From a virus: a stretch of DNA of 41,458 nucleotides. Under the pieces are notes generated by a model, which did not search any database, was not told where the DNA came from, and worked only from the letters and a program-made list of their open reading frames with translations. Each line of letters begins with the position of its first letter. Position 1 is the first letter of the stretch. The translations under genes were made by a program, and so were the position numbers. Location: the UHGV virus genome UHGV-0205600. One strand, 5' to 3'. Below, one piece after another: positions 1 through 41,458 of this stretch.

Positions 1-9
1 ATGTGGCTG

Positions 10-951
10 TTAAATGCCATCAACGTACGAAATGGTTTCTTTGTACACTGGCTCGACTGCACCCAGCTTGCCGTAGTAAGTGACGATCTGATACAGACCG
101 CGATACTGCACCGGCACGCTCTGAAGCGGAACCAGCGGGTAGCGGACGTATTTTTTATCGTTGGTGTACGCAACCATGCGATCCTTATTCCCCACACCAC
201 GGCCTTTCAGCCATTTAACCGCGCGGATATTCAGCGGAATACCGTTCTGGTGATAGCTGATGGTGTTGGTCTGAAGGTACGTCAACAGGGACTGGTTACC
301 CGCAGATGAAACGATGATGCTGGACAACAGAGCAAACTGCTCAGGCGGGATCAGCAAATCACGCGGAACCACAGAGTAACCGGAAGCGGCCCACGCATCA
401 GACAGCACCTGGTTAATGCTTGCGCGGATTTCGTCCGGTGTTGAGGTTGCCCACGTTTTGGCAGCGTTGTTGACAGGCACACCGTCCAGGGTAACAAGAC
501 CTTTCAGGTTTAATGCGGAATCGCCAACATACACCTGTTCATCGTTATCCATCTGCCATTTCAGTTGCATCCCGTCATACTTCTGCGTATCGATCGGGCG
601 TCCGACCTGCTGAGCAGCCTGCAATTCTATGACCGTCCAGCCAAGTTCCATCCCCCACAGGTTCAGCGGGTTACCGGATTTGCCGATATCCACGTTTACG
701 CCAGCAATAGCGGTTGAGTCTTTGCCTACCCAGTTTTTGCCATTCGGATTTGCACCAGTACCCGCAGCGGCGAAGCTGGTATTCGTCCAGCTGGAAATGT
801 CATCTGCGATGGAGACATCTTCACGCAGTTGGATATCGCGGGTCCAGGTGTACCCCACCAGTGGCAGGTTCAGCGTCTGGTCGAGTCGCTCCAGCTCCCC
901 GATGAGAAAGGCACCAGAGCTGTCAACGGTTGCCTGATCAAAAGTAATCAT
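10..951 (-). CDS. major capsid protein
   Basis: 313-aa ORF, last gene of the head operon downstream of portal, F-like and scaffold genes; assignment by position and size. Confidence 0.6.
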   Translation of the reverse strand: MITFDQATVDSSGAFLIGELERLDQTLNLPLVGYTWTRDIQLREDVSIADDISSWTNTSFAAAGTGANPNGKNWVGKDSTAIAGVNVDIGKSGNPLNLWGMELGWTVIELQAAQQVGRPIDTQKYDGMQLKWQMDNDEQVYVGDSALNLKGLVTLDGVPVNNAAKTWATSTPDEIRASINQVLSDAWAASGYSVVPRDLLIPPEQFALLSSIIVSSAGNQSLLTYLQTNTISYHQNGIPLNIRAVKWLKGRGVGNKDRMVAYTNDKKYVRYPLVPLQSVPVQYRGLYQIVTYYGKLGAVEPVYKETISYVDGI

Positions 952-962
952 TCGTCTGTTCC

Positions 963-1469
963 TTAAATCTTCCAGGAAATTTCTGCATTGCCGTCAGCAT
1001 CACCGGCACCTGTGAATTCAGCGTTGGTCAGCACCACGTTTTTGCCACTGACTGACGTGGCCATGAATCCACCCAGCGGCACTTTGATGGATTCATCAGT
1101 GGAGACGACAACGTATACCGGGTCGCCTTTTTTGATGGTGCTGGCATCAAAATCAGAACCGAGATTAACGGTCACGTAGCCACGCTTCATTGCGTCGCCC
1201 GGGAAGTTCTTGCCACTCCCCACCTGGCGAACCATGTCCGGCTGCGAAGTGGTCGGATAAGGGCGCACATAGATCCCCTTCACCTTGTCTGCGGTATCAC
1301 CATCTGCCAGCGGCACGAAAAAACCGTCATCATCGTATTTACCAGCCAGCCCATAGGCAGCAAAGGCGTTATCGGATTTAAGGACCACCGGTTCGACGGT
1401 TAAGTCCTGCGGGCGAGAGACAGCCCCGGCAATGCCAACAGGCATCCGGTACAGAAATACATTATTCAT
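963..1469 (-). CDS. head protein, possibly decoration or scaffold-associated
   Basis: 168-aa ORF between the putative scaffold/protease and capsid genes; assignment by position only. Confidence 0.4.
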   Translation of the reverse strand: MNNVFLYRMPVGIAGAVSRPQDLTVEPVVLKSDNAFAAYGLAGKYDDDGFFVPLADGDTADKVKGIYVRPYPTTSQPDMVRQVGSGKNFPGDAMKRGYVTVNLGSDFDASTIKKGDPVYVVVSTDESIKVPLGGFMATSVSGKNVVLTNAEFTGAGDADGNAEISWKI

Positions 1470-1472
1470 TTT

Positions 1473-2693
1473 TTACCCTTTACGGTTTGCCCAGAATTCA
1501 GCGTTTTGTTTGTTCAGGGAAGCGATACTGGTCATGCCCATATTTGGGCGCTGTGCATCGCCGGTGGTGGCGCGGGTGTTTCGCCCTTTGGCAATCTCAG
1601 ACACGGCATTAAACGCCATGTCGACTGATTGTTTCGGCAATTTGCGGATATCCGCATCACCGACTATCTGGCGAACCAGCGTTTTGTCAGCAGAAGCCAG
1701 AACCTCACGTTTGAACGCGGTCGGTTTCATCTTACGGCTCAGATCAATACCCGGAACGATAACTTCGGCACGCCAGGCTGAGTCACCAGTAATCGTGGTT
1801 TCCTCTTCATCGTCCTCGCCGTCACCGGTCGGATTATCGTCAGGCTTATTGTCGTTATCGCCCGTCGCATTTCCTTCCAGCTTAGCCAGCAGGGCTTTCA
1901 GTAATGTTTTGAGGTCATCATCACTGTCGCCCGTTGGACCTCCGCCCATCTCTGGTGCTTTGTCCGGTAGCGGTTGCTGTGGGGACAGGTTGATGTTGAG
2001 ATTAACGCCCTGCGGCAAATCCCCCTCATCTCCTGTAACCGATGCGGGAGCCGACTCCACCAGTTCGTTCATGGTGTCAGCGTCACCCGTTTTGATGGCC
2101 GTGCGCATGCGGGTCCACCAGCTTTTCTTTTGATTTGCCATTGTGTCTCTGTCTCCAATTGCACAACGATTTCCGGCTCTGCCTTTAGGGACAAGAGCCA
2201 CATGGTTTCCGGTAATATCAACCTGCTCAGCCTTACCCGGCTCAGTCTGCTTATATTCCGCGTCATAGCCACACGACACTTCGCGCAGGCCATCTTCGAT
2301 CAGCTGAATGGCGTTTTCGTCTTTGACGATAAGGTCAGCCAGCATCAAATCAGACTGCACACCCGTCCCGCGCCGGACATTCTGAAGATGCCCGACCGCG
2401 AGCTCTTTCCAGTTCTCTGGATTCACCAGCCGCACATCCCCGTTTTCATCCTCGGGATGCAACACCGTGATACTCATTCCTTCGAATGAGGCAAGCGTGG
2501 CGGGATGGAATACCTGCTCAGGAGAACGCGTGACGACTATTTCACCGAACTTATCGGGTTTCAGTTTTGGCAGGTCATCAGCACCATAGAGCTGCTTACC
2601 TGTTCGTCCTATCGGCACGTCTTTGCACAGCAACGAGCCGTCAGCCAGCTGATAGCGGGTTTCCCCCAGCCGGGTATTGAAAAAATATTTCAT
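1473..2693 (-). CDS. putative prohead protease/scaffold protein
   Basis: 406-aa ORF with a central acidic Asp/Glu/Gly-rich linker, located between the head morphogenesis and capsid genes. Confidence 0.5.
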   Translation of the reverse strand: MKYFFNTRLGETRYQLADGSLLCKDVPIGRTGKQLYGADDLPKLKPDKFGEIVVTRSPEQVFHPATLASFEGMSITVLHPEDENGDVRLVNPENWKELAVGHLQNVRRGTGVQSDLMLADLIVKDENAIQLIEDGLREVSCGYDAEYKQTEPGKAEQVDITGNHVALVPKGRAGNRCAIGDRDTMANQKKSWWTRMRTAIKTGDADTMNELVESAPASVTGDEGDLPQGVNLNINLSPQQPLPDKAPEMGGGPTGDSDDDLKTLLKALLAKLEGNATGDNDNKPDDNPTGDGEDDEEETTITGDSAWRAEVIVPGIDLSRKMKPTAFKREVLASADKTLVRQIVGDADIRKLPKQSVDMAFNAVSEIAKGRNTRATTGDAQRPNMGMTSIASLNKQNAEFWANRKG

Positions 2694-2707: not shown

Positions 2708-3442
2708 TCAGGCGGGATAAGAATGGGAGGTGGGAAAAACGATTTCTTTATAACAGCGACAATTCGGGAGCTCGCCAGCGTGACCGGTCATGCCATCAAG
2801 CGTTGGAGGTTTGCCCCATTCGACAAATTTACCTTCCATTTCCCGATGAGAATGCCTGACGTCACCATCTTCGGCTGTACGCCAGATATAACCATTCGAA
2901 CCAATTGCCAGCGCACGCGCCTGATCCAGCGCGCCGGTTGCACGTCCAAGTTCAGTACGGGCAATCAGGTCAGCTCTGGACTTTGCTATATCACCCGATG
3001 CGGCTATTTCTTTAGCAAAATGTTCCGCTCTCCCACCGGTCACAACAGCTTCAATCGCCCGATTCTGGATGTCGTACACCCTGTCAGCCGCCTCGAGGGG
3101 TAGCGATTTAATGTACTTAACCTGTTCAGCAACGATGGATTTCATCACCTGCCCTGGCGGGGCACTGTTTACCAGATTGCGTAGCTCACGGCTGATGGTT
3201 TTGCTGTGTTTACGCCACTGCTCATCATTCTTGCGCACAATATCGGCAGTAAAGTTTTCCGCGACCTTTGTCGCCCAGGGGGTGATGATTTCACTGTAGC
3301 GTTCCAGCGCCTCAATAATTTCCGTGATACTGTCATTTGAACCATCGTAGTGACCATTTACGATGTCCCCTACCGCCCGCGCTATCCTGCGTAGGCTGGT
3401 TCGATACCGGATTTCCGCCTGACGGTTCCTGCGGTTCGTCAT
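2708..3442 (-). CDS. head morphogenesis protein (Mu F / SPP1 gp7-like)
   Basis: Immediately downstream of portal; C-terminal GELPNCRCY-type motif typical of the F-like family; the longest ORF (to 3481) overlaps the portal end, so the start is probably an internal Met. Confidence 0.65.
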   Translation of the reverse strand: MTNRRNRQAEIRYRTSLRRIARAVGDIVNGHYDGSNDSITEIIEALERYSEIITPWATKVAENFTADIVRKNDEQWRKHSKTISRELRNLVNSAPPGQVMKSIVAEQVKYIKSLPLEAADRVYDIQNRAIEAVVTGGRAEHFAKEIAASGDIAKSRADLIARTELGRATGALDQARALAIGSNGYIWRTAEDGDVRHSHREMEGKFVEWGKPPTLDGMTGHAGELPNCRCYKEIVFPTSHSYPA

Positions 3443-4799
3443 CAGGTTCGCCGATGCCGGGCGGCGCTTCATCTTCGGCATTCTCGATGTCCTCGTCGGT
3501 AATGGATGCCCCGATGCCGGTTACGTCAGAATTTTCTCGCAAATCAGTCATAGCGGCTTTCAGTGTCATCAGACCATCACCCAGCGCTGTACTGATTGCG
3601 TTGGTAGTGTTTAACGCCACCGTTGAGCGATCGACATCAGACATTTGCCAGAGCGGGTTAAACTCAAACGTGAAATCGTCCGGCAGCGGCTTGCCAAGCT
3701 CCGAACGATGCATGATGTCCAGTATCCGCCGCACCGGAAGACGTAAACGCCTCTCCTGCAACGAGCTTACCCGGTCGTAATAGTTGGCAAGGTCTGCATC
3801 GCCGGTAGAAAATCCCTTCGGGGACTGTCCGAACAACCGCACCAGTGGGATACCAACAGCGCCACTAATCTGTTCTGCAAACTGTGAAAGGATGTCATCC
3901 AGACCACTGAAGCTGTACTGATGGGTTTCAAACTTATCCCGCGAGTCCATGAGAGTCATGCCTTCATTGCTCTGGAACTGTCGAATCAGGTCAATATTCT
4001 TCAGCAACGCTTCATACGCAGGACCACCAAGTGCGATAAGCTCGCGTAGCTTCTCCACGCTGTAGGTACGCAAATGCGCTTTGTAGACCAGCTGCGCCGC
4101 GCCGACAGTAGCGCTGTCGAACGCGGTAAGACGATCCCAGATACGCTCTACAACCGACATTCCCCATTCGTTCTCGGTCATCTTCTGCTGAAATGGCAGC
4201 GTGACGCCATCAAAGCGAATCAGTCGACTGTGATGAATGCGCCAGGCAGGAATTCCCGTTGCTGTGGTCACCACATCGTAAAACTCAGGTTTACCCAGGT
4301 CCGGCCCCATATCTTTAATGCGGCGGGTCAGTACCGGGTCAATCATCCAGCGGTCGAGCGGGAGAATCCCCTTAAACTTGCCCTTACCGATGGTTTCGGG
4401 TCGCAGCGGGGTCATTGGTGCCTGCCCCTCAATCATGATGAAACCCACCGCGCCGCCGTAGAGGCGCGACCATTTCAGCACGTCATTCAGCGCATCCCAG
4501 ATTTGCAACTCATCCAGTTGTGATTCGAGAATGCCGCGATCTTTTGCATCAATTTCCGAAGTGATGCGAATGCCTTTGCGGGTCATATCATCCGGGATAG
4601 CATCGACCGCTTCGCCGATGATCCAGGACGAACGATAGGACCATTCCACCAGCATGCGGTTACGACTGGTGAAATTAGCCCGGTAGGTGGATGCTGAGTG
4701 CTGGTTAGTTGTCTGCATCCCTACGCGGGCAATAAAATTCTCATAACCATCAGCTGTGGCCTGCGCAGTTCGCCGCAGGGCTTGTTTGTTTCGTGCCAT
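3333..4799 (-). CDS. portal protein
   Basis: 488-aa ORF directly downstream of the large terminase with a 1-nt overlap and an acidic C-terminus; position and size typical of a portal. Confidence 0.7.
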   Translation of the reverse strand: MARNKQALRRTAQATADGYENFIARVGMQTTNQHSASTYRANFTSRNRMLVEWSYRSSWIIGEAVDAIPDDMTRKGIRITSEIDAKDRGILESQLDELQIWDALNDVLKWSRLYGGAVGFIMIEGQAPMTPLRPETIGKGKFKGILPLDRWMIDPVLTRRIKDMGPDLGKPEFYDVVTTATGIPAWRIHHSRLIRFDGVTLPFQQKMTENEWGMSVVERIWDRLTAFDSATVGAAQLVYKAHLRTYSVEKLRELIALGGPAYEALLKNIDLIRQFQSNEGMTLMDSRDKFETHQYSFSGLDDILSQFAEQISGAVGIPLVRLFGQSPKGFSTGDADLANYYDRVSSLQERRLRLPVRRILDIMHRSELGKPLPDDFTFEFNPLWQMSDVDRSTVALNTTNAISTALGDGLMTLKAAMTDLRENSDVTGIGASITDEDIENAEDEAPPGIGEPDDEPQEPSGGNPVSNQPTQDSAGGRGHRKWSLRWFK

Positions 4800-6421
4800 C
4801 AGGCCTGTCTCCCTAGCAGCTCCCAGATGTTCAGGGCTGAATTCATTGGGGCATAGTTGATCATCACCGAGTCGGCAAGGTTTGGCGATCGGGTTCCATC
4901 AGGCTGTTTATCAATAACTATTTTTCCCACACCATTAATGGAATAGGTCGGCTGCGAAAGCTCGATGATGAGTTTATCTTTGAGTGCCATGCTACTGCTG
5001 ATTGAGATGATTTCGTCCGGGTTGTAAGCCATACCTTCAACCACGGCGCGCCAGGTATTCTGAAAAAGTTTACGTAACCGCCACCAGCTCTGGGCTTTGG
5101 CGTTAGCGAAGAAGTCCTTGTTCAGACGTGCGGCTTGCCCGTTGTCCCCGCGAACAGCTTCATCATCCGGATCAAATACCGCGCCACTACCTCGAAACGG
5201 TGTGGCAAGTATTGACGGTCGACGCGCAGCGTTACGCAGTTCGTTGATAGCGCGTGCATCGCCGCGAACGCCAGCGCCCAGCCCGTCCTCGTCAAAGCGA
5301 AACTCTTCGAGGTTGTCCTGTTCGCAAAAGCCGAAAACCTTCTCGACGGACTGATAAATGTCGCTGCCCACACCGGACCATTCCCGCACATTTTCCAGGA
5401 GGAAGCCATGACGGGTGGAAAAGGCATTTTTGTCCCTGCCTTCATCAGCGACATCCATCGCGCCAAGTCGTTTGCCTGTTGGCTGGATACCCAGTCTGAT
5501 ATGCGCATCAACGGCAGCCTGTACCCATTCGGATGGAATCAGGACGCCTTCCGCTGATGCGCTGTAGTTCAGATCAAGTTCCTGTGCCACCACCACCGGA
5601 TTATCGATTTTCTCGCATTCCCTGCGATACCACTCTTCATCCTTGCGAGGATCATCCCGCCAGTGGAATGTGAATACCGGTATCTTCCCGCCATGACGCT
5701 TCTGAGCGAACGGGTTAGCCATGCCGTTAACTGAACTCAGGTCGATACGGCAACGCGTCGTTTGTGACAACGCCGCATCAATCAGCAGAGGACGCTGAAG
5801 GAATGCAGCCTCATCAACCAGATAAAGCGTGGCACGGTCACCACGACCAATATTATCGCCAGCCTCGCCTTTGATAACGGCACCAGTTTCAGGAAACTCA
5901 ACACGCATATATGGCGCGTGCTTCTTCTCGCTCCACGAACCGCGAAACTCTACAGGTAGTGTTTCCACGAACTTGCGCGCCTTCCAGAACAATGCTTTCG
6001 GGTCACCGGTGCTGTCGACGTATTCCTCTTTACGGGAGCCGAAACCGATAACCATTTCTTTGTTGAAGAGACAAAGCGAGCAGGCCAGTCCGATCGCGGT
6101 CCAACTGAGCCCCATTTCACGGGATTTTTCGGTAATACCATTCTCCCTATTGCCCCAGCGTTCCATAATCCAGTGGATCCACTCCTCCTGCTTAGGGAAG
6201 AGTAAAAACGGAATGGTCACCGGCAGGCCATAATCAATATTACGCGGGTCCGTTGTCATGCCCCAGTCGATGATGAACTGAGCCGGGTTGGTTCGGTAAA
6301 ACTGTTTTAGTGCTGGCAATATTTCAGGGTTCTGGCGAATGCGCTGTAAGCGTTCCATCCGCCATTCAAAAACCATCTGGTAATCAGGATTTTTAAAATC
6401 GAAGGGGAATGGTAACGGCAT
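4799..6421 (-). CDS. terminase large subunit
   Basis: 540-aa ORF following the small terminase; N-terminal ATPase-like and C-terminal nuclease-like layout; canonical terS-terL-portal order. Confidence 0.85.
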
Positions 6422-6423
6422 AC

Positions 6424-6975
6424 TTAGCCCATCATTTTTCTATACGCCTCTGCAGCCTGCTCCGGCGTTAAGTTGGTAATTTCTGTTCTGACTGGTCCTC
6501 CATCAGCGCCAGTCACTTCATTTTTGACGTTGTCTTTAAACGCCTGAACAGAAACATGACGCCCAAGCAACTCAAGGTTTTTAACCTTATCAGGCCATTT
6601 GATTTTCTTCAGAAGTGCGGCGCTATCTGCGGATACCATCTCCATGACATCCATTCCTGATAGCGTTGTGCGCCATACCTTAGGCCAGTCTTTAATGGGT
6701 TTTAGCTCACCGTTTTGCAGGAGAATGTCAAGCACATCCATCTGGTCGATTTCAATAAGGCGATTAAGCACATATTCTGCATTAATACCAACAAGATCAT
6801 TGCGTTGCGCTTTCAGTTCGGCGATTCTTAACTTGATGTCAGGTTTTGACAGGTTTTCGGATGCGGTACGGTTAGCTGTCTTAGCGCTGTACCCCGCCCG
6901 AATAGCCGCTTGCGTGGCGTTTAAATCGATGAGGTACTCGCGACAGAACATTTCTTGTTTGTCGGTGAGTGCCAT
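6424..6975 (-). CDS. terminase small subunit
   Basis: 183-aa ORF with N-terminal [15 protein letters not shown]...[12 protein letters not shown] helix-turn-helix typical of small terminases; directly upstream of terL. Confidence 0.75.
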
Positions 6976-7002: not shown

Positions 7003-7212
7003 ATGTCAAAAAATCCACGTACCCCTAAATTTAAAATCGGCGACATTGTTTATTTGGTTTCAGGCGGCCCGGCGATGGCTATTCAGGAGCCAATCATAAA
7101 CAGCTTTGATGTTTTTGTTGGTGATTACTGGTGTCAGTGGTTTTCAGGAAGAAAGCAAGAAAGAGCCAGATTTCCAGAAGAATCACTGACTGCTACCAAC
7201 CCAAAGCCGTAA
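7003..7212 (+). CDS. small protein, DUF2158/YodC-like
   Basis: 69-aa ORF with KIGDIVYLVSGGPAM motif resembling the YodC/DUF2158 family; divergent from terS. Confidence 0.5.
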   Translation: MSKNPRTPKFKIGDIVYLVSGGPAMAIQEPIINSFDVFVGDYWCQWFSGRKQERARFPEESLTATNPKP

Positions 7213-7247
7213 ACCCAAACGCACTCAAGTTGTCTCTTACAGACGTG

Positions 7248-7496
7248 ATGAAGTGGATGATGGCTCAGTTAGAATATGACGGTTGCCTGTATCAGGAAGA
7301 CGTAGTTGATTATTTAGTCAAACTCGATAATGAGCAGTTTCTGAAAGAAAATGCTGATGGTAATCTTGTTTTATCTACACCTGTCATTACCCAATTCCGC
7401 AAAGTAAGCGGTGATAAAGTGGTTTGGGTTAAGCCTGAGCGATATTGGCGTTATCGCGTTAATGAAGATGAGCCTGGTCGCGAAGCGCGCGGATAA
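7248..7496 (+). CDS. hypothetical protein
   Basis: In-frame ATG at 7248 (MKWMMAQ...) within ORF 7131..7496, 36 nt after the preceding gene; about 83 aa; no recognisable motif. Confidence 0.4.
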   Translation: MKWMMAQLEYDGCLYQEDVVDYLVKLDNEQFLKENADGNLVLSTPVITQFRKVSGDKVVWVKPERYWRYRVNEDEPGREARG

Positions 7497-7677
7497 ATAA
7501 TCTGTGGTGACTCTGTGTTATGGTCACCATTCTTATTCAACGGAATCCAAGTCCGGTTTTACCATAATTCTGCACCTAAAGTTAAAGCCATTACAATGAT
7601 GCTACCCATTTGACGGCAATAGAAAAGCCACTCGCACTTGCCAGTGGCCCTATGTCTTTTACTAAATCGCAGCTTGA

Positions 7678-8418
7678 TCAATGTTGAGGAAGTGAATTAA
7701 CTGCATTTACGATTGGTTCTAACGAGAAACCAGTCCCAATGCCAGGATTGGCATTAAGATTCAACATTTCATTAACCATTTGCAGTGAGCGACTGAACAT
7801 ATCTGCCATTCGTCCAAAGTTAACCCCCATGACTTCCACTGACATTTGCTGTGCTGCCTGCGCCAAATAGCCGCGAAGCTGAGCAACTTCATTAGAGAGC
7901 TGCTGCGCATCAGGCGGCAGAATGTATCGACGTTGAGTAACAATGCCTACAGCTTCTCCCGTTTCCCGGTCAATAATTGGACCGCCTGAATTTCCACCAT
8001 TAACCATTCCATCAAGAGCAAAACGCCCACTTTCCAGAGGGGCGGAAATAATCCCTTCATTCGTAAGCAATTGAGGCAGCCCATGCGGATACCCGGCAAA
8101 GATTAACTTTTTGCCTCGAGTTGGAGTAAATCCTACGGATGGTTGAAGTACTGTTCTCCCGGCAGGAAGCGGTGATTGCAACCGCATAATCGCAAAGTCG
8201 TTGTCACCATCAATGTACAATATTTGAGCTTCTATATGCTCATTAGATTCAGTCTGAAGGTTAACATGATTAATTTGACGCAGATTCTGCAAGTTACAGC
8301 AGGCGGCGACAACATGAAAATTGGTTACGACCAGATCTTCTCGCATAAAGCTGAACCCACTACCACGAGAATCCCCTGCAATGACCTGAAAAGTTGCGTT
8401 GGCTAGAGTTTGATGCAT
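7678..8418 (-). CDS. trypsin-like serine protease (S1 family), cytoplasmic
   Basis: 246-aa ORF with catalytic-triad motifs in order: TNFHVV (His), DNDFAIMRL (Asp), GGNSGGPI (Ser); no N-terminal signal peptide. Confidence 0.75.
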   Translation of the reverse strand: MHQTLANATFQVIAGDSRGSGFSFMREDLVVTNFHVVAACCNLQNLRQINHVNLQTESNEHIEAQILYIDGDNDFAIMRLQSPLPAGRTVLQPSVGFTPTRGKKLIFAGYPHGLPQLLTNEGIISAPLESGRFALDGMVNGGNSGGPIIDRETGEAVGIVTQRRYILPPDAQQLSNEVAQLRGYLAQAAQQMSVEVMGVNFGRMADMFSRSLQMVNEMLNLNANPGIGTGFSLEPIVNAVNSLPQH

Positions 8419-10201: not shown

Positions 10202-10416
10202 TATTCACCTCTCGCAGCCTTTCTTCTGTCTTCTCTGATTTTGAAGTACAGATTTGTCAGATAGGTGAGAAAGCCCAACACAAGGCTTCCAAGCACCCCA
10301 ATCGCAGCCCACTGTGATGGACTGACCTGATCCAACCACTGCAAAAACCAGTATCCCGCACTACCAGCGGATGTTCCGTAGGCAATGCCAGTTGAGATTT
10401 TGTCCATTGATTTCAT
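10201..10416 (-). CDS. S: pinholin (phage 21 S-type), dual-start
   Basis: 71-aa ORF starting MKSMDK (dual-start holin/antiholin motif) with two TM segments; immediately upstream of the SAR endolysin. Confidence 0.85.
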
Positions 10417-10611: not shown

Positions 10612-10615
10612 TATT

Positions 10616-32416: not shown

Positions 32417-32557
32417 TTGATAGGCTCCAATAATTTAAAACACTTGCTTTGATATTTTTGTTAAGAGCAATCAAACTATATGTTCGGATAGTGGTTGGTT
32501 TTATTAACCGTTTTCCGCTTATCAATCACAGCAATTAAATCTTTACAAGGATTAGAT

Positions 32558-32779
32558 ATGAGCACTGACTCGCAAACAACCGATATTCAGGTCAAATGCC
32601 TGCATTGTGGAGCATGGTTTCCTTCAGCTATATGGATTGGGGATCGTGAGTCCCTTCAGTCTGGAGTTTTGTTTGGGAACAAGCAACAATGCCCGAAATG
32701 TCATAAAATGACTGATTGTAATAAAGAAAATTTCAAAGCTAGATTTAAGGATGGCGGATTTATAGGTACGAAAGTCTAA
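32558..32779 (+). CDS. small zinc-ribbon protein (about 73 aa)
   Basis: Start at MSTDSQTTDIQVKCLHCGAW...; two CxxC pairs (CLHCG, CPKCH); opposite strand to the surrounding tail operon. Confidence 0.45.
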   Translation: MSTDSQTTDIQVKCLHCGAWFPSAIWIGDRESLQSGVLFGNKQQCPKCHKMTDCNKENFKARFKDGGFIGTKV

Positions 32780-32796
32780 ATAACATCCCCAAAAAA

Positions 32797-32818
32797 AGCC
32801 TCACGGCGATATGAGGCT
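32797..32818. terminator. bidirectional rho-independent terminator
   Basis: Stem agcctca / tgaggct with 8-nt loop, flanked by an A-run upstream and a T-run downstream; sits between two convergent small genes. Confidence 0.6.
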
Positions 32819-32841
32819 TTTTCAATGAATACTAAAAATGT

Positions 32842-33189
32842 TCAATCAGCAATTTTCTTACAAGGGTAAGATCCAATGATTTTCGGAGCATCCATGCTGT
32901 GTTGCAGCAGTTGGACGTTCAGGAAGGCTTTTCCGTTACGCTTCACAAACTCAAAGCCGTAATTGTTGCCATCGCGGGAAGGCATCAGGCCCATGTCGGT
33001 TTTAACGTTGTCCCAGTCATCTTTCTGACCAAGAAACTTAATTTTCTGAGATGTTACCTGTTCGCCGTTGATTTTCGTCCACCCGTTATCAGATGCATGA
33101 AGTCGGTATCCCCCGCATTGCAAATCAGCGAAAGCCGATGAGCAGGAAAACAGTAACGAAATTGTCAGAACTAACTTCATACGCTTCAT
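32842..33189 (-). CDS. secreted small protein (about 115 aa)
   Basis: Start at MKRMKLVLTISLLFSCSSAFA, a Sec signal peptide; Cys-containing mature region; inserted between baseplate genes. Confidence 0.5.
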   Translation of the reverse strand: MKRMKLVLTISLLFSCSSAFADLQCGGYRLHASDNGWTKINGEQVTSQKIKFLGQKDDWDNVKTDMGLMPSRDGNNYGFEFVKRNGKAFLNVQLLQHSMDAPKIIGSYPCKKIAD

Positions 33190-34253
33190 GAATAAATCCT
33201 TTGCTGCGCTGAGGACGAAAGTAAATCCGCCGCGCCACGCGCTTCGCACATCATGTCCATGTACCACGCCTGGCCCCTTGTGTCACCAGTGTACATAATC
33301 CCGCGCACAATATAAACGCCATCCGTTGCGATGCTGGCAGGCTGCGATGTGGTGCCGCTGAGCGTGATATTTCCGTCCGTGTTCTGGTCGGTGATCTGAC
33401 CACCAGCCATCGCAATATCGTTGTTCGACAACGCGGTACGATAGACGGAAGCCTGATCCAGCTGAATGAGCCCGTTAACCCGGATGTTCGGATTAATAAG
33501 CGCGCGGACGTTTACGCCGTTACCGATAGTCTGCTGCGGCATTCCAATAAGCCCGGTAGCGCTGTTGAGCACAATCGCTTCGTGAACATATTCGTTATTC
33601 GCCACCATCTGGCGCTGACCGTCCACGAATTGCCATGTTGCGCCACATTGTCCGGCTACGTTATCCATTAGATGCCGCGTCATGCCAAAGAGTACCCGCC
33701 CCCGGGGGAATACAGTAGCAGGCATTTCAGGCGTCAGGCCTTCGGTCGCGCCTTTGGCTTCGAAGTCTTTCATCAGCGCACGGTTCACATCAGCGACCGT
33801 GTAACCGGCAGCCAGCGTCTGTGAGGTTATACTGGTAGCAAAAGCCAGATCAGTATCTGCTGCCTGAATCAGGACGTAGGTATCAACCGGACTGTCTTTT
33901 CCTGTGACCGAGTAGCGAATTTCACCGCTGAAAATCAGTCCGTAGTTGCGGCCATCACTCTGGCCCACGTCCGCCGCGTCAACTTCCCGCACTGTCCCGA
34001 CGTCGCTTGCCGACACCTCCGGCGCGATACCGTCGTAACCCGCAATCAGACGCACTTTCGAAAACTCCTGTCCGGTGATTCGGTTCACAGTATCTGCCGA
34101 GAGGTTATAAATTTTGATAGTCCCTACCCGGGATGCACTGCTGATGTTGAACCAGTCGATCGTAAAGGTAACTTTAAAATCACTTAGCTCAATTCCCTGA
34201 CCGTTCTCGTCCACAAGCTGCAGCTCGAAATGTCTCATCCAGTTCTGTGACAT
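33186..34253 (-). CDS. baseplate hub protein (Mu gp44 P-like position)
   Basis: 355-aa ORF downstream of tape-measure-associated genes; assignment by size and synteny. Confidence 0.5.
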   Translation of the reverse strand: MSQNWMRHFELQLVDENGQGIELSDFKVTFTIDWFNISSASRVGTIKIYNLSADTVNRITGQEFSKVRLIAGYDGIAPEVSASDVGTVREVDAADVGQSDGRNYGLIFSGEIRYSVTGKDSPVDTYVLIQAADTDLAFATSITSQTLAAGYTVADVNRALMKDFEAKGATEGLTPEMPATVFPRGRVLFGMTRHLMDNVAGQCGATWQFVDGQRQMVANNEYVHEAIVLNSATGLIGMPQQTIGNGVNVRALINPNIRVNGLIQLDQASVYRTALSNNDIAMAGGQITDQNTDGNITLSGTTSQPASIATDGVYIVRGIMYTGDTRGQAWYMDMMCEARGAADLLSSSAQQRIYS

Positions 34254-34255
34254 GC

Positions 34256-34558
34256 TTACTCCGTTGATACCAGTAAATGGCTGCGACCGCCCAGGTCAGT
34301 TTTTGTGGGGTAATCCTGTGTGTTGTCATCACAGACCACCACCAGCTTAAAACCAAGCCCCATACAGGCGTACTGCGCCAGCAGGTCGGCACCAGTGACG
34401 AGAGGAATACCGGAGATTACCGGCTCCCCTCTGTCGTTCTGCAGGTCCATAATCCAGTACAGATCGCGCCATATGATGCTAATCCGCCAGGTAACACCAC
34501 CTAAGACGATGCTGAACTGCTGGTTGTCCGCTGTCAGCGGAATTTCCTGAATTGTCAT
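34256..34558 (-). CDS. tail protein
   Basis: 100-aa ORF in the tail block with tight spacing to neighbours. Confidence 0.4.
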   Translation of the reverse strand: MTIQEIPLTADNQQFSIVLGGVTWRISIIWRDLYWIMDLQNDRGEPVISGIPLVTGADLLAQYACMGLGFKLVVVCDDNTQDYPTKTDLGGRSHLLVSTE

Positions 34559-35145
34559 TAGCCGCCCCCCAGTAATGACGCCACGTTACCCGTGATGCTT
34601 TTCAGCAGTGAAGTATCTGGAGGCTTTGTGGTTTTGTTGCCGCTATTCTGTACCGCCGACGTGCTGGCCCCTTCCTTCATGTTGGTTTTATCCGCGACGG
34701 TAATCTGCTGTGTCCGGGAGATAAGGACCTCCCTCAGGGTGAGGACGGCGGACAGGACGTTTTCGGTTGTCTTGTCCGTCGTCACTTCCAGCGCCCGGAT
34801 CAACATGTTGCTGTACAGTCGTTTACCGGTTACCACATCGAAGGGGATACGGCTTTCCTGCAGATCCAGTAGCTCCTGATACGTCTGCTGAGGACTCAGG
34901 CCGAGCAGGCTGGTAGCCGTCAGATTACTGGCAAAATCCAGCAATGCGCCGTCACCGGCGAAACCAACCTCCATCACCACTTCTGACGGTTTTTTATAGG
35001 CATGATCAGCGACAGCGGCCCCAACCTCTACCGGATGCTCTGTTATTTCAAGCATATCTGTATGCTTCTCTGAAATAACAACACTGGGAACAATCATTCC
35101 TATTTTTCTGCTCTGCTGATGAAAAAGTGTAGAGAGAATATCCAC
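34558..35145 (-). CDS. tail protein (DNA-circulation-like position after tape measure)
   Basis: 195-aa ORF immediately downstream of the tape measure gene; assignment by synteny. Confidence 0.4.
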   Translation of the reverse strand: MDILSTLFHQQSRKIGMIVPSVVISEKHTDMLEITEHPVEVGAAVADHAYKKPSEVVMEVGFAGDGALLDFASNLTATSLLGLSPQQTYQELLDLQESRIPFDVVTGKRLYSNMLIRALEVTTDKTTENVLSAVLTLREVLISRTQQITVADKTNMKEGASTSAVQNSGNKTTKPPDTSLLKSITGNVASLLGGG

Positions 35146-37133
35146 TAACCCACCCTCACCTGATTACTTCGCATGACCTGAGCATTTGCAGACTGTTGCC
35201 GACGTGCAACCTCATTACCGACAGCGTGCGGATCTCCGCCACCGTAAATGTGGTAGGTATTTTGCTGGTTAACCTCTGTCACTTTGCCACTAATTCCCGC
35301 CACGGCAGCCTTATTAATCAGCTCTCGAGAATAGATATTTCTTCCATTCTCATGCTGGATAATGCTGCTCATCAATGCTGACATGGTTTGCGGATCGCTC
35401 ATATTCAGGGCAGCCCGGGGATCCACTCCCAGTCGTTGCGATACAGCCCTGATATACGCAGTTGTGTTGTTATTATCAGACGCAGGTGCCCAGGTAGAGA
35501 TAATTTTCTCCACACTGTTTATTCCCCGTCCGGCGTACAGCATTAACTGACGAGCAAGAGCCCGTAATCCATCAAAGGCAGTTTCAAATCTGGCAAATCG
35601 CCCGCCCGGGCGTTCAAGAGAAGCCCCTGCCTGACCAGCAAAATTAAGGTTTCCCGGATTGTTATTCCGTTCTCCTCGTTTCGTAGCCTGTGCATGTTGT
35701 TCCGGCTCATCATCACCAAACCAGCCGCGTACCGTCCGGCCCACACTGCGGGGATCAAATCCCCAGTGCTCTTTAATCCAGTCGGCAGTACTGTTAGCGC
35801 TGTCTGTAACCATCGGCATCGCTGACGGATTTTCGCTGCCCTGATTAAGTATCTGTTTGCCGATGCTGACGGCATCAGCCCAGCGGCCATCTTTGATAGC
35901 GTTGAGCAGGTCGGCGATCATGTTCAGCATTTTGCTGAATTCGCCCATCTGGTCGATGAAGTTGCTGAAATCCCACTTCAGGGACCATGATTTGGGGTCA
36001 ATATTGAGCAGTTTCGCCAGCGCTTTCACCAGGTCGTTAACGGTCGTTTTAAGGTCACGAACCATCTTCAGCGCGGCATCAACCTCCGGTTTCCACTTGC
36101 CCCAGTCAATCAGGCTGTCGCCGCCTTCCTTCCAGGTCTGATAGTCCTCCCACAGGAGGGCAATCCCCGCCGCCAGCGCGGTAATGAGGCCAATCGGCGA
36201 CATCCAGAACGTACTGTTCAGAATGCGCAGCGCAATCGTCAGTGCGCCAAACAGCGAGATCAACTCCCGCGTTTGCTTATCCAGCGATTGCCACCAGGTG
36301 ATGAGGCCTGATGTCCCCTCAATCAGTCTGAAGAACAGCCGCCCGATAATATCCCCGAGCGCCAGAATGCCTTTTATGGCTTTCGTCAGGGTCTGCTCGA
36401 TACGCGGGAAGTTGTCCAGGATATGGCGGCGCAGTGTGTCCAGCGAACCCGCAAGCCCACCCGCAAGATTAGAGCCGATTTTGTCACGGGCCATGCCTGC
36501 CATCGCGCCAAACTCACGCAGGGAGGTCATAAATTTGTTGGAGCTTCTGGCCGCCTCGTCAGCATTGAAGCCGATAGCTTTCGCCATTGCGCTGTACTGC
36601 CCGGAGAAGCCACCCACACCGCGACGCATAGCCAACAGGGTATTTTCGTCAATGCCCAGCATCTGCGCATACTGGTTAGCACGGTAATACGGCATGTCGC
36701 TGAGCTTCTGGCCTACCCCTGTAAAAATAGCGGCCATGTCACGCATGTTACCGCTGGCATCCCGTGTCTGTACCCCCAGACGATTCAGAAATCCCTCCGC
36801 CCCGGGATTATTACGAATAAACCGGGAGAGGTTTTCCAGAGAAGATCGCGCAGCGTCCACGCTGCCGCCAACCTGCGAAACCGCATAGCCAATAGACTGA
36901 ATTCCCTGGACTGTCGCGCCGGTGCGCTGTGACGCCCAGTAAAGATTATCCAGGCCGGAGGCGATCTTAGCCGTGAAGGCCACCACGGACAGCGCCGCTC
37001 CTTCGACGGCCAGCCCCATTTTGATGACATTTGCAGTTGTACCGGCGAGGACAGAACCGAATTTTTTCGCTCCTGCATCATCCACACTGAAGCCAAGCGA
37101 GACAAGGAAATCTTTAATAGTCTCGGCGTTCAT
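35145..37133 (-). CDS. tail tape measure protein
   Basis: Longest tail ORF (about 660 aa), helical/Ala-Gly-rich with hydrophobic central segments; downstream of tube and chaperone genes. Confidence 0.65.
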   Translation of the reverse strand: MNAETIKDFLVSLGFSVDDAGAKKFGSVLAGTTANVIKMGLAVEGAALSVVAFTAKIASGLDNLYWASQRTGATVQGIQSIGYAVSQVGGSVDAARSSLENLSRFIRNNPGAEGFLNRLGVQTRDASGNMRDMAAIFTGVGQKLSDMPYYRANQYAQMLGIDENTLLAMRRGVGGFSGQYSAMAKAIGFNADEAARSSNKFMTSLREFGAMAGMARDKIGSNLAGGLAGSLDTLRRHILDNFPRIEQTLTKAIKGILALGDIIGRLFFRLIEGTSGLITWWQSLDKQTRELISLFGALTIALRILNSTFWMSPIGLITALAAGIALLWEDYQTWKEGGDSLIDWGKWKPEVDAALKMVRDLKTTVNDLVKALAKLLNIDPKSWSLKWDFSNFIDQMGEFSKMLNMIADLLNAIKDGRWADAVSIGKQILNQGSENPSAMPMVTDSANSTADWIKEHWGFDPRSVGRTVRGWFGDDEPEQHAQATKRGERNNNPGNLNFAGQAGASLERPGGRFARFETAFDGLRALARQLMLYAGRGINSVEKIISTWAPASDNNNTTAYIRAVSQRLGVDPRAALNMSDPQTMSALMSSIIQHENGRNIYSRELINKAAVAGISGKVTEVNQQNTYHIYGGGDPHAVGNEVARRQQSANAQVMRSNQVRVG

Positions 37134-37310
37134 TATCCTCTCTCCATTTCTCAATGCGCCGCTGGTTATCCGCTTTTACCGCCAGATGGTCATTCAAGAG
37201 AGCAATGTCGTACAAATCGACAGAGCCATCTTTAAGTGCTGTATAAGGAATTAACCCGGCGTCAACCGGATTGAGAAGGTAGGACAGCCCGTCCGGCAGG
37301 CTGTTAAACG

Positions 37311-37763
37311 TCAGCCCTGTTGCAGGCTCTGCGTCGTGCTGGTAAGGGGTGTAGGCAAAAAATTTCCCAGCGAATCGGCGACCACCCGCGCCACCAGCTG
37401 CAGCATGACCAGCAGGTCAATATCATCAAACATCAGTTCGCCCTGGGTAAATACCGGCACCCATCCGTCCATATGACGCCGCGATACCACCGCAAGACAG
37501 GGATGAATAATCGCATCGGTGTCATCTTCGGTCAGGGAAGACAGTTCCTCAGCGATACGCGGGAGCATGGTTTCAAACACCGGTTTTAACTGCTCGAATT
37601 TCACGGTGTCGATTTTGCCGTCAGCAGGCAAACGGGAGCGAATGCTCCCGAAATCTGACATCATTCCCGCCAGTACCGGCAGAAGTTTGCGGGTCACTTT
37701 CAGCTGGTCAAAAACGCTGAGTTTTGCCACGCGATATTTCACGCCTTTGATTTCGAATTCCAT
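37311..37763 (-). CDS. tail assembly chaperone
   Basis: 150-aa acidic ORF between the tube and tape measure genes. Confidence 0.4.
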   Translation of the reverse strand: MEFEIKGVKYRVAKLSVFDQLKVTRKLLPVLAGMMSDFGSIRSRLPADGKIDTVKFEQLKPVFETMLPRIAEELSSLTEDDTDAIIHPCLAVVSRRHMDGWVPVFTQGELMFDDIDLLVMLQLVARVVADSLGNFLPTPLTSTTQSLQQG

Positions 37764-37766
37764 GTA

Positions 37767-38207
37767 TTAAAACTCCCCGAGAACCTGGTCAATCTTGCCG
37801 CAGTCAAACACCCACGGCATCGTATTACCGGTTTTAGCGTTGGCATTATCCGGTTGTTTCTGGAACGCAACACTGCGTGCCGTGATGATGTCGCCGCTGA
37901 CCTTGTTGCGGATCACGATAACGTTATTCCCCCATGTGGCAGAAGACTGGCTCTGTGCGTTATACGCCAGCGACAATTTTTTATTTGTCGGTGATGTCTT
38001 CAGAAGGTTAACGGTAATCGTCCCGCTTTTATCTGCATGGAGGCTGTGCATCACTTCACCATCAGCACCGATGGTCATGGTGTTTTTAGGACCGCCCATC
38101 GCAACCACAATCCCCTCTTCAGAACTTGCAGAACCGTACCCGAGGTCAATCGAACCGGTCGGGCCGGTCAGCGTCGCAGTGACATCCATAAAAGAATAGG
38201 TAGACAT
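37767..38207 (-). CDS. tail tube protein
   Basis: 146-aa ORF directly downstream of the sheath-like gene. Confidence 0.5.
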   Translation of the reverse strand: MSTYSFMDVTATLTGPTGSIDLGYGSASSEEGIVVAMGGPKNTMTIGADGEVMHSLHADKSGTITVNLLKTSPTNKKLSLAYNAQSQSSATWGNNVIVIRNKVSGDIITARSVAFQKQPDNANAKTGNTMPWVFDCGKIDQVLGEF

Positions 38208-38217
38208 TCACTTCCCC

Positions 38218-39363
38218 TTAGCGAACAACGTTAATCTGTACGTCAGCGTAATGAACCGCGCCTGCAAGTTTTATTGCAGCCTGAATCACCGGAGCCTTAC
38301 GGGCTTCACGTTCTGATTGTGCCTGTTCATCCAGCGGCTGGGCGTATACGTAATAACCTTTGGGCAGTGTGTCACCTGATGACAACTGACCAAGGTCGCC
38401 CCCGTTCCATACGCCCGGAGCAATCAGTCCATTCTGAACGGCCTGATCCAGTGATTTTTCAACATTTGATAACAGTCGGGTAATACCGGCTTCAGTCTGG
38501 GGAACTTTCGTGGTGCTGGTATAAAGCAGGTTATAGAGGTTGGTCTGCACATAATTCTGTAACCAGTCCAGGCCGTGGCGTTCATCAAAGAAATCGCCGT
38601 TAGCCATCACTCCCTGCTGGAGGATAGCCGTATCATTCTGGTAGTACACGAATACATTGCAGTTTTTTGCATCAAGTGCCGATGCCTGGCTGACTGTCAG
38701 TGTTTCATACCCGACACCCGGCTCCTGCTTAAACTTGAGCGTAATCGCGGTATTACTGCCATTGAAATTAACCGTGAATACCCGGCCAAATGCAGATAAC
38801 GCAGCGTATTTATTACCCGATGAATACTGAATAAAACTGCGTGAATATCCGGCGGTTTTCAGTTTTGATGCCAAATCATCGCTGGATGCAGTCTGCAGGC
38901 ATTTATCATCGCTTGTCGTAATCGCCAGAATACGGCTTACAGAAGAGGATTCGATCGCCGCAGCCACTTTCAGCCAGTCTGCATCCGGAATATCTTCATC
39001 GTCTGCAATCCCCAGCCCATACCATGAAGTATAATCGAGCATGGCATTCACAGCCTGCTCCAGCGTCTCAAGCGTGGCCTGTTCGCTGTCACCCTTCGTT
39101 TTCACCCAACGACCAACAAAAACCTCCTGAGGTTTCGGTGATTGTGAGAAAAACACCTGCGCAGCCTTATATTCTGGTGATTCCACGCCAAAATCTTTTC
39201 CAATATCTTCCGCGGCAGAATAACGGCGAATGCGCTCACTTACCGGAATGATTGTGGACGGGCCGAGAATGAGTAATGCACCAAAATTTCGCCCTGATGC
39301 TGCACGCGGCGACATGATCACATCAACATTAACAACGTTTGATACAGGCAAGCCCTGTGCCAT
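38218..39363 (-). CDS. tail sheath-like protein
   Basis: 381-aa ORF upstream of the tube gene in a contractile-tail gene order. Confidence 0.55.
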
Positions 39364-39366
39364 AGC

Positions 39367-39975
39367 TTAATCTCCGAAAAAGATGACTGGTGCTTCCACC
39401 AGCGATTTAATACCGTACTCGCGCACAACCTTCCGGCGCAGGCGCACCGTCATATCGTAGCGGCGGACCCATTGCTGATTAATAAGTTCAGGGAAGGGGG
39501 TCAGACCTGTGTAATCGCCAAGAGACAGCCCCAGCGCATTCAGTGCTGCATTGTTCTGCGGTACAGATATACCGTCACGAAACCGGGACGCATACACCAT
39601 CCCCGCCGGACCATAAAACGAAGCCATACACTCAATCGTTTCATGCCGCCAGAGCTTAGAGCCATCATCGGTCTGTCTGGTGAATGCCGGACTGTCATCA
39701 CCTGACCATCCGATAACCCCAAACGCACACCAGTTCGTTTCAGCCGGTAGCAGTGGCGGCTGCTCTTTCTGCCAGCGCGGGCGAACCATCCCGGCAGACA
39801 GACCGGAAACGTTACGCATCCACTGGCTTAACAGCCTGTCGAGCGCTTCGTCATAATCCGGATCGCCACTGGTTGGTATCAGCCATCCGCGCTCTGTACT
39901 GGTGTTATTGCTCAACCGGAATTCCCCCATCAAACGGCAGCAACTCACAATGCGCCTGAACGAATCCGGCACCAT
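39367..39975 (-). CDS. structural protein, head-tail joining region
   Basis: 202-aa ORF in the operon between head and tail genes; start uncertain. Confidence 0.35.
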   Translation of the reverse strand: MVPDSFRRIVSCCRLMGEFRLSNNTSTERGWLIPTSGDPDYDEALDRLLSQWMRNVSGLSAGMVRPRWQKEQPPLLPAETNWCAFGVIGWSGDDSPAFTRQTDDGSKLWRHETIECMASFYGPAGMVYASRFRDGISVPQNNAALNALGLSLGDYTGLTPFPELINQQWVRRYDMTVRLRRKVVREYGIKSLVEAPVIFFGD

Positions 39976-40294
39976 AAGCTGTATACGGGTCGACGAAGGT
40001 CACACGATAATCACGGCCCTGATACGTCACGATATCGGCATCACGGCCAGTCTGTCCCTGCGTCAGTCGCTCAGTCGTCACAATCAGAATTGCACCGCTG
40101 ATTACCTGCCCTGCCTGCATACGGCGGTTTTCCAGAGAGCGATCAACAGTTACGACTCCGGCAAACTGCTTTTTAACTTCGCTGTCGCTGCCGATCCCGT
40201 CCTCATCCACCGTTTGCACTCGGCGTGTTACCCACAAATTGAAGTCGCAAAAATCGGGGTCAAAAAGCACATCTGTTACATCAAGAGTCGGCAT
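39905..40294 (-). CDS. structural protein, head-tail joining region
   Basis: 129-aa ORF overlapping neighbours within the structural operon. Confidence 0.35.
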   Translation of the reverse strand: MPTLDVTDVLFDPDFCDFNLWVTRRVQTVDEDGIGSDSEVKKQFAGVVTVDRSLENRRMQAGQVISGAILIVTTERLTQGQTGRDADIVTYQGRDYRVTFVDPYTAYGAGFVQAHCELLPFDGGIPVEQ

Positions 40295-40835
40295 CTTTAT
40301 CCCTCACTACATGGGTAATAGCTCTGCGATATTGCCCGGTGTCAATTAATGGTTTCGCCAGATCGGTTCCGGGAGATTCGCCAGCAGCACGCCGGGCAAG
40401 TTCCAGTGTTGCCCCCTTGCGCCCCCGACGAGCCCGGGCTTCAACAGTACTGTCAGCAAGCGGCGTAAAGCCGGTAATGGTCATGTAACGCCTGACACCA
40501 TTAACGGCCAGCGTTCCGGCACGGTTGAGTGCGCCTTCTGCTCCCGCAGCATTACCATCCAGTGCAGCCTGCGCCGCGGCTTTGAGCTGCGGCACCGTCT
40601 GCTCTTCTGCCGATTTAACGCCGGGGGCCAGGTGAGGTCGTGGCGGGATGTTCTGCTCTGGTGAGCCGTATTCGTTGAGGTAACCGATGCCCGCATTACC
40701 AAACGGAACATCATCCCGCTCGCTGTCTTCCGAAGGGATGCCGACCAGCACATCTTTTTTGGTTAACGACCTGAGCGCATCCAGAATGGCCTTAGCGTTA
40801 TCCACCCTCGTTGTTACACCGCTTTTGAAACTCAT
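40281..40835 (-). CDS. structural protein, head-tail joining region
   Basis: 184-aa ORF within the structural operon. Confidence 0.4.
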
Positions 40836-41239
40836 AGCTGGCGACCGCCTGCACCGAACATCGTGATCAACTGATAAAATTCAGCGCCATATCGGGTGTT
40901 ATTCCAGAAACCTGCATCAGGATTCAGCGTCGCGCTGGTGTCATAACTGACGCTTACCTTATCCACGGACTTTGAGGACTGAACACCATTGGTTGAACCG
41001 CCCGAACCACCAGCCAGCATCGCCCGGCTGTCTGCCGCCCAGAGCGTCATGTAGTGCGCAACGAACAACCCGGCAAAGTACGGAAACAACTTTTTGCCGG
41101 TGACGTTTTCGCTCAGCAGTTCATCGGCCAGATTCAGACGAAACTGGATTTGCGCTTCGGGATATTTGGCAGGGTCAGCAAACTGCGGGAAGTCGCGGCG
41201 AAAATCACTTACCGCTGGCAGACTTTGATTCTTTGGCAT
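40832..41239 (-). CDS. head-tail connector-like protein
   Basis: 135-aa ORF that would directly follow the capsid genes if the window is circularly joined. Confidence 0.45.
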
Positions 41240-41426
41240 TTTTTACCTCGTTACGCGCGTCTGTGGCTTTGCCAACGGATACTTCCGCGTGCGCACGAGT
41301 GAACCAGTGCGTGGCAACGTCTTCCTCCACAGCATGACGGCCTTTAACAAACTCGCGCCGTGAACCGTCGGGAAGCGTGAGCACAAACGGGGTATGTACG
41401 TGTATTACTGCATTATTTTTTGCCAT
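41205..41426 (-). CDS. small structural protein
   Basis: 73-aa ORF at the window end; would follow the major capsid gene if the sequence is circular. Confidence 0.35.
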
Positions 41427-41458
41427 CGGGTCATCCTTAATGGCCCCGCCAGGGGGCC

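Follow-up and report, generated by a model that had tools for sequence, protein, structure and literature searches.

The virus genome UHGV-0205600 is represented by one stretch of 41,458 bp without ambiguous bases (hereafter the window), for which a mechanical list of open reading frames (ORFs) of at least 60 amino acids (aa) contains 173 ORFs. The original prediction, that this stretch is a complete, circularly permuted phage genome, was borne out as far as a complete genome written as an opened circle is concerned, since the junction between its two ends is gapless in comparison with relatives and its phage attachment site (attP) is intact. The window very probably corresponds to one complete temperate, lambdoid, contractile-tailed phage of Escherichia coli, in its excised form and with its circle opened at an arbitrary point; a headful packaging step is proposed for it below. 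The structural operon comprises 26 genes, all on the minus strand, running from the small terminase gene terS (6975) across the junction of the window ends to the tail fibre assembly gene (28042). It is given here in operon order, together with the two halves of the spacer formed at the junction:

6424 to 6975, minus strand: small terminase subunit TerS, 183 aa, first gene of the operon (PF03592 Terminase_2, 7e-40; phrog_51)
4799 to 6421, minus strand: large terminase subunit TerL, 540 aa (phrog_2)
3333 to 4799, minus strand: portal protein, 488 aa (PF06381 Phage_portal_3, 7e-106; phrog_146)
2708 to 3481, minus strand: Mu F-like head morphogenesis protein (PF04233; phrog_324)
1473 to 2693, minus strand: DUF2213 head protein of the protease/scaffold class (PF09979; phrog_1961, phrog_12864)
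963 to 1469, minus strand: capsid cement or minor capsid protein (PF23982, PF22758; phrog_563)
10 to 951, minus strand: major capsid protein, 313 aa, complete (PF09950, 1e-87; phrog_264, 1e-99)
1 to 9: right half of the junction spacer, the first 9 nt of the window out of 41 (gapless alignment, chromosomes, IMG/VR contigs)
41427 to 41458: left half of the junction spacer, the last 32 nt of the window, with a hairpin (direct sequence reading)
41205 to 41426, minus strand: STY1053-family head-completion protein, 73 aa
40832 to 41239, minus strand: DUF4054 protein
40281 to 40835, minus strand: Neck1 protein
39905 to 40294, minus strand: adaptor protein
39367 to 39975, minus strand: neck terminator protein
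38218 to 39363, minus strand: tail sheath (phrog_205)
37767 to 38207, minus strand: tail tube (phrog_280)
37311 to 37763, minus strand: tail chaperone (phrog_1688)
35145 to 37154, minus strand: tape measure protein (phrog_2276)
29435 to 35145, minus strand: baseplate block, which includes 195-aa and 100-aa proteins and a phrog_3443 protein (names partly from the Prokaryotic Genome Annotation Pipeline, PGAP) and the next five entries
33186 to 34253, minus strand: baseplate hub
31664 to 32416, minus strand: baseplate spike
31311 to 31664, minus strand: baseplate wedge
30112 to 31311, minus strand: baseplate J protein
29435 to 30115, minus strand: DUF2612 protein
28437 to 29453, minus strand: tail fibre (phrog_11303/863)
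28042 to 28452, minus strand: tail fibre assembly protein (Tfa), end of the operon (phrog_188)

The assignments in the head-completion and neck block (39367 to 41426) are based on phrog_6497, 302, 222, 939 and 1973, on NF047914 and on PGAP names in a collinear prophage. The true start of the Mu F-like gene probably lies downstream of the listed ORF start, the gene being annotated as shorter in relatives.

Once the ends are joined, these 26 genes form the continuous operon from terS to the tail fibre that had been predicted. The head genes do meet the window start at the major capsid gene, which is whole and has its stop codon 9 nt from the first base, and the head-tail joining genes do lie at the far end, where the gene at 41205 to 41426 is followed by those for the DUF4054, Neck1, adaptor and neck terminator proteins. 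The gap at the junction is 41 nt; elsewhere in the operon, neighbouring genes overlap or are at most 14 nt apart, with two exceptions of 156 and 425 nt. A terminal overlap or direct repeat between the window ends, which the original prediction had named as a check, was found neither by exact search nor by BLAST. Because of this absence, closure is not readable from the window alone, and it is shown instead by comparison with relatives. The last 400 nt joined to the first 400 nt align with the genome record of phage vB_EcoM-606R2 (ON470579) over 790 of 800 positions with no gaps (99% identical; L001 18277-19076), and the capsid gene is separated from its neighbour by 41 nt both in the joined window and in ON470579. 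When the window was split at attP and its halves were compared with complete E. coli genomes, the match to 23723-41458 ended in 11 complete chromosomes at the base just before the match to 1-23676 (e.g., NZ_CP132063, 3809937|3809938; NZ_CM128562, 1151192|1151191; NZ_CP154406, 3747321|3747322). A 42-mer spanning the junction is also intact in 36 IMG/VR contigs. The ends thus join with no ORF cut and with no base missing or extra relative to independent relatives, and no bacterial genes lie at either end: the sole sequence of bacterial derivation is the 46-bp core, shared with the tRNA gene thrW, inside attP in the middle of the window. Neither of the two refutations named with the original prediction was borne out.

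The break in the capsid/neck spacer cuts no ORF and lies about 7 kb from terS, so that it marks an arbitrary opening of the circle and no packaging end. The break (41458|1) is located at the edge of a hairpin, a few bases past its end. This hairpin (GGCCCC-GCCAG-GGGGCC, 41436 to 41452) has a 6-bp GC stem and a 5-nt loop and lacks a T-run. It possibly acts as an attenuator or as an mRNA-stabilising element by which the ratio of capsid to neck proteins would be set. Direct or inverted repeats of at least 25 nt were absent from the whole window, as were insertion sequence elements, and the ORFs of the window revealed neither an additional terminase nor an additional integrase or repressor. The modules from packaging through lysis occur singly, in agreement with the prediction that every module of a temperate phage is present exactly once.

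The integration genes and the attachment site lie in the middle of the window:

22243 to 22623, plus strand: excisionase (TIGR01764)
22500 to 23663, plus strand: tyrosine integrase (PF00589, 3e-48)
23678 to 23723, minus strand: attP core, 46 bp, corresponding to the 3′ end of the tRNA-Thr gene thrW (exact match to the published core)

Shortly after the integrase stop codon (23663), positions 23678 to 23723 read TGGTGCCGATAATAGGAGTCGAACCTACGACCTTCGCATTACGAAT, whose reverse complement matches exactly the published 46-bp attP core of phage SfI. This core is common to SfI, SfII, SfV and SfX and corresponds to the 3′ end of thrW (PMC3636060). The attP of the window sits between the integrase gene and a cargo region, with both phage arms joined to the core. 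In the chromosome of E. coli QML220601, the integrase-side arm with the core runs into a complete tRNA-Thr gene beside proA-proB (attR) and the cargo-side arm with the core (attL) is found 43.5 kb from attR; the left arm of the window attP matches this attR and its right arm this attL. In E. coli B1S11 the cargo-side junction adjoins pao genes, and E. coli matches to the cargo side start consistently at window positions 23660-23673. Chromosomal thrW prophages run from window position 23723 to 41458 and on from 1 to 23676, and so take in exactly the whole window; the lengths of related thrW prophages are 42-45 kb. A 71-mer of attP is present in two IMG/VR contigs.

Because this attP is recombinant, and in lysogens its sequence is divided between attL and attR, the window represents the excised circular form, i.e., one att-to-att unit. 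A prophage with host flanks was rejected as the attP is intact, and so was a phage-plasmid, as neither partition nor plasmid replication genes were found in the window and integrase and attP are present. The prophages observed next to proA in E. coli chromosomes are those that the integrase would produce by recombining the 46-bp core with the 3′ end of thrW. A tandem dilysogen also has an attP-like junction between its copies, and the window could in principle be a stretch of a polylysogenic chromosome cut from capsid gene to capsid gene, with attP as the junction between copies, a case that sequence alone does not separate from an excised circle. Such a stretch would nevertheless have to equal one unit to the base, without any duplicated or missing nucleotide at its ends, and every chromosome inspected shows a single att-to-att unit, so that we regard this explanation as extremely improbable.

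The closest known counterpart of the virion module is that of SEN34, a phage assigned to the genus Brunovirus and the prototype of a group of the lambda supercluster with myovirus morphology (PMC5261728). SEN34 is plaque-forming, and its circular record of 40,740 bp compares with the 41.5 kb of the window. The gene order is identical round the circle: terS, terL, portal, Mu F, DUF2213, cement, major capsid, neck, sheath, tube, tape measure, baseplate, fibre and tfa, and then O-acetyltransferase, int/xis, red genes, repressor, O/P, nin, Q and lysis genes. Twenty-four of the 26 virion proteins match SEN34 in the same order, with 37-96% (mostly 65-96%) amino acid identity (TerL 95.6%, portal 91.8%, major capsid protein 86.6%), some of them partially: the 73-aa protein over 50 of its 73 residues, the fibre over its first 96 residues only, and Tfa in part. 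SEN34 differs from the phage of the window in TerS, integrase and att site, immunity region and fibre tip, and in its host, S. enterica subsp. diarizonae versus E. coli. A genus, by the ICTV definition, requires a nucleotide similarity of roughly 70% or above across the genome. Comparison of the window with 37 of the 40.7 kb of SEN34 gives 0.39 (coverage 0.49 × identity 0.80), so that the phage falls outside the nucleotide-similarity rule for Brunovirus; it has the collinear orthologous virion module.

The integration region and the early region point to other relatives. The Shigella flexneri serotype-converting phages SfI, SfV, SfII and SfIV resemble the phage of the window in the identical 46-bp thrW attP core, a near-identical integrase and a contractile tail; their O-antigen-modification cargo and the putative one of the window both lie beside the tail genes towards attP; in SfI, the lambda-like early region is also about 98% identical and a tRNA-Asn/Thr pair is shared. 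The head and terminase of these four phages are of the HK97 type and their cohesive-end (cos) site is 10 nt long, whereas the phage of the window carries a SEN34/DUF1073/DUF2184-type module and those cos sites are absent. Neither an SfV-type cos site nor an HK97-like head was found, the head module being of the PF06381/PF09979/PF09950 type. The cargo also differs: gtrABC in SfI-type phages versus an acyltransferase gene and two unassigned genes in the window. At the nucleotide level, about 9.6-23.8 kb is 98-99% identical to parts of phage phi458, SfI and lambda, and about 29-41.5 kb is 96.6% identical to the tail region of vB_EcoM-606R2 and about 80% to SEN34. The phage is thus a new mosaic of known modules, combining a SEN34-type virion, a lambda/SfI-type early region and an SfI/SfV-type int-attP(thrW) module with putative surface-modification cargo. 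Lambdoid myophages of this kind are already common as thrW prophages in E. coli.

Three relatives share large parts of this mosaic. The virion module of vB_EcoM-606R2 (ON470579) is 96.6% identical over 52% of window positions 20000-41458; the early region of phi458 (OP434518) is 98.7% identical, including a 348-aa gene described below; and the QML220601 prophage covers 89% of 1-23676 at 98.6% and 71% of 23723-41458 at 97.1% identity. Each of them shares only part of the window and differs from it in attP-side cargo, moron slots and fibre region. These relatives have an invertible pinE segment in the fibre region, unlike the phage of the window. The 425-nt gap in the baseplate operon (32417 to 32841) has as its sole ORF one of 94 aa on the plus strand, with weak zinc-ribbon matches, and the corresponding slot is occupied by a 257-aa gene in QML220601, a 170-aa gene in 606R2 and two small ORFs in SEN34; because relatives hold different inserted genes there, it is a variable moron slot. 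As a separate observation, positions 1 to 2254 of ON470579.1, described as the 'complete genome' of vB_EcoM-606R2, consist of bacterial genes (tRNA adenosine deaminase, pgpC, yfhH), and the record apparently represents a prophage together with host flank and not a clean phage genome.

Some results of these comparisons count against a complete genome of exactly this composition. No phage record among those searched covers at least 80% of either window half, and while three E. coli prophages cover 81-89% of 1-23676, none reaches 80% of 23723-41458; as no record or prophage covers both halves to at least 80%, the exact mosaic is not confirmed by an identical second copy. The lack of a full-length twin of this module combination in the collections searched, together with the long near-identical stretches shared by lambdoid phages, which can mislead assemblers, would also suit an incomplete or chimeric assembly, misjoined at a shared lambdoid segment or devoid of one segment. 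However, the module boundaries are all collinear with real prophages, one chromosome carrying 89% of 1-23676 at 98.6% identity with the other arm adjacent, and all genes are intact. The length of 41.5 kb fits those of SEN34 (40.7 kb) and the related prophages (42-45 kb), and the differences are limited to known variable slots, namely attP cargo, fibre tip and morons. We consequently judge a faulty assembly to be very improbable, and retain the complete excised phage genome as the basis of what follows.

If the genome is complete, its packaging is probably headful (pac), as judged from the terminase. TerL is 99.3% identical to that of vB_EcoM-606R2, 95.6% to that of SEN34 and 50% to that of BcepB1A. 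It has no match in Pfam or NCBIfam, for which reason no packaging class can be read from its family. Among PDB sequences, TerL matches only the nuclease domain of E217 TerL (8dkr, E = 7e-33) and Sf6 gp2 (E = 5e-27), with nothing else up to E = 10, hence no cos-type TerL. Sf6 is a pac/headful phage (PMC3851460), and the Pbunaviruses, the group of E217, have been reported to be headful with permuted genomes (PMC12390725). In such a process, concatemeric DNA would be packaged by the headful from a pac site recognised by TerS, and the resulting virion DNA would carry terminal redundancy and circular permutation and would hence assemble as a circle. The term 'circularly permuted' in the original prediction accordingly stands in the sense of a rotated linear writing of a closed circle; permutation of the packaged DNA is suggested by terminase similarity.

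Two points weigh against headful packaging: the likeness of TerL to the Sf6 and E217 terminases concerns mainly the nuclease half, at about 31-34% identity, and the authors of the work on SEN34, the closest isolated relative, did not identify its packaging signal (PMC5261728). A search of the literature on packaging in SEN34, BcepB1A and Brunovirus returned nothing usable. The genome could also be complete and circular in the assembly and belong to a packager with cos or fixed ends, in which case the virion DNA would be unpermuted and the window a rotated record. SfI, SfII, SfIV and SfV, which share int/attP and the early region, are indeed cos phages, and early reports on PB1-like phages suggested defined ends (PMC12390725). 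This alternative is less easily reconciled with a head and terminase module unrelated to the HK97-type module of SfI and SfV and with a TerL whose matches among solved structures are to headful terminases only. Moreover, a motif search of the window, which covers specific cos and pac sites and does not identify the real packaging site, found neither the SfI/SfV cos 10-mers nor the SfI cos primer sites, nor the lambda cosN 12-mer, nor the P22 pac sequence (as given in PMC5261728). Overall, we consider packaging from fixed ends unlikely and favour the headful mode. No counterpart of TerS was detected in SEN34 by tblastn, even though the adjoining TerL is 95.6% identical; this suggests that the subunit recognising DNA, and with it the pac specificity, may have been swapped independently of the motor subunit.

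The remaining modules of a temperate phage (lysis, Q, nin, O/P, cII/cro/cI, N, red and xis/int) are all present and intact. Apart from the integration genes, they are encoded as follows:

9270 to 9719, minus strand: Rz spanin (PF03245)
9704 to 10201, minus strand: lysozyme (PF00959)
10201 to 10416, minus strand: P21-type holin (PF04971)
10535 to 10690, minus strand: tandem tRNA-Thr(UGU) and tRNA-Asn(GUU) genes, between the Q and holin genes (ARAGORN)
10782 to 11327, minus strand: antiterminator Q
10782 to 14662, minus strand: replication/nin region including ren and NinB/E/F/G (PF04492, PF06992, PF06530, annotation of a relative)
13065 to 13766, minus strand: replication protein P
13763 to 14662, minus strand: replication protein O
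14695 to 14988, minus strand: cII
15108 to 15323, minus strand: cro-like gene
15399 to 16094, plus strand: cI-type repressor of the LexA family (Peptidase_S24 and HTH_3)
16120 to 17166, plus strand: 348-aa protein in the rexAB position
17481 to 17813, plus strand: N (N36)
18084 to 21023, plus strand: early-left genes ral, DUF2528, cIII, kil, gam, bet and exo (collinear PGAP annotation of a 98.6%-identical prophage)
19561 to 20346, plus strand: bet
20343 to 21023, plus strand: exo

This is the layout of lambda (N, cI/cro, cII, O/P, nin, Q, lysis), and over parts of 9591-21952 the genes cII, O, P, ren, nin, gam/bet/exo, kil, cIII and N share about 98% DNA sequence identity with their lambda counterparts. 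Lambda is a siphovirus, whereas the phage of the window is a myovirus judging from its genes, and their virion, lysis and integration modules differ. The tRNA-Thr/tRNA-Asn pair is also found in the QML220601 prophage. SfI carries such a tRNA-Asn/Thr pair at the equivalent position downstream of Q (PMC3636060).

The repressor is a hybrid, whose C-terminal domain appears nearly identical to that of lambda cI. The translations show that the N-terminal helix-turn-helix domain of the repressor and the cro gene are not those of lambda. An immunity region equal to that of lambda was therefore rejected, and the phage is probably heteroimmune to lambda despite the approximately 98% DNA identity of the flanking genes. 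In the position of lambda rexAB, the phage carries instead the gene encoding the 348-aa protein, for which no family match was obtained in Pfam, PADLOC or NCBIfam and no sequence match in PDB. In phi458 this protein is 100% identical. It also shares about 25% identity with 'GspM-containing' proteins that PhiR12 phages encode in their immunity regions, and a match in mEp332 extends over only 27% of it, with 29% identity.

Cargo and moron genes occupy the slot on the attP side and the interval between the lysis genes and terS:

24117 to 25583, minus strand: 488-aa protein with a predicted LmuA/Mrr-like nuclease domain, low GC content
25899 to 26420, minus strand: 173-aa ORF with no assigned function
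26974 to 27999, plus strand: membrane protein of the acyltransferase-3 family (PF01757, 5e-28; phrog_3333, phrog_6705), about 36% GC
7003 to 7212, plus strand: DUF2158 protein, 69 aa (Pfam)
7131 to 7496, plus strand: DUF6953 protein, 121 aa (Pfam)
7678 to 8418, minus strand: trypsin-like serine protease, 246 aa (Pfam)

The attP-side slot has a low GC content (35-40%), with 35-38% for the two ORFs between 24117 and 26420. Its acyltransferase gene, located 3.2 kb from attP with the two unassigned genes in between, encodes a probable O-antigen acetylase and is likely to be a lysogenic-conversion gene. An O-acetyltransferase gene occupies the equivalent position in SEN34, between the fibre genes and int, and the gtr/oac cargo of Shigella phages is analogous. 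In other E. coli prophages, the attP-side slot contains retron Ec67, AAA+FRG+HNH, DUF262 or GIY-YIG genes.

The 488-aa and 173-aa cargo ORFs have no match in Pfam, PHROG or NCBIfam. The 488-aa protein belongs to a broad family of proteins of about 485 aa (120 clusters), some of which are named in their sources as DUF4297 (Cap4-type nuclease) or restriction endonuclease. Its AlphaFold model (pLDDT 83.5) has as top, though weak, fold matches Lamassu LmuA and MspJI; a weak PADLOC match to LmuA and the invariant residues D74/Q88/K90 both agree with this fold result. Homologues in an Acinetobacter island and in the remnant of a P2-like prophage are solitary and have no partner gene in common. It is possible, although doubtful, that the 488-aa protein is a stand-alone anti-phage nuclease of an undescribed family and the 348-aa gene a new prophage exclusion gene. 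In that case, the nuclease would consist of an LmuA/Mrr-like PD-(D/E)xK N-terminal domain and a helical C-terminal domain, without an LmuB/C partner. The moron block between Rz and terS (7003 to 8418) has a GC content of 44-46%, and its serine protease domain resembles the proteases of the PADLOC systems RT-Protease_XI and Avs1b.

A closed genome in attP form allows every other feature of the window to be read as phage-borne and not as host-derived, and closure together with attP fixes the integration site (thrW) and the ends of the prophage. It also locates the variable slots, on the attP side, in the rex position and between the lysis genes and terS, which hold the probable lysogenic-conversion gene and candidate defence genes. 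The combination of a SEN34-type virion with lambda/SfI-type early and integration modules is already common in E. coli chromosomes, and its recognition here is useful for annotation and unsurprising.

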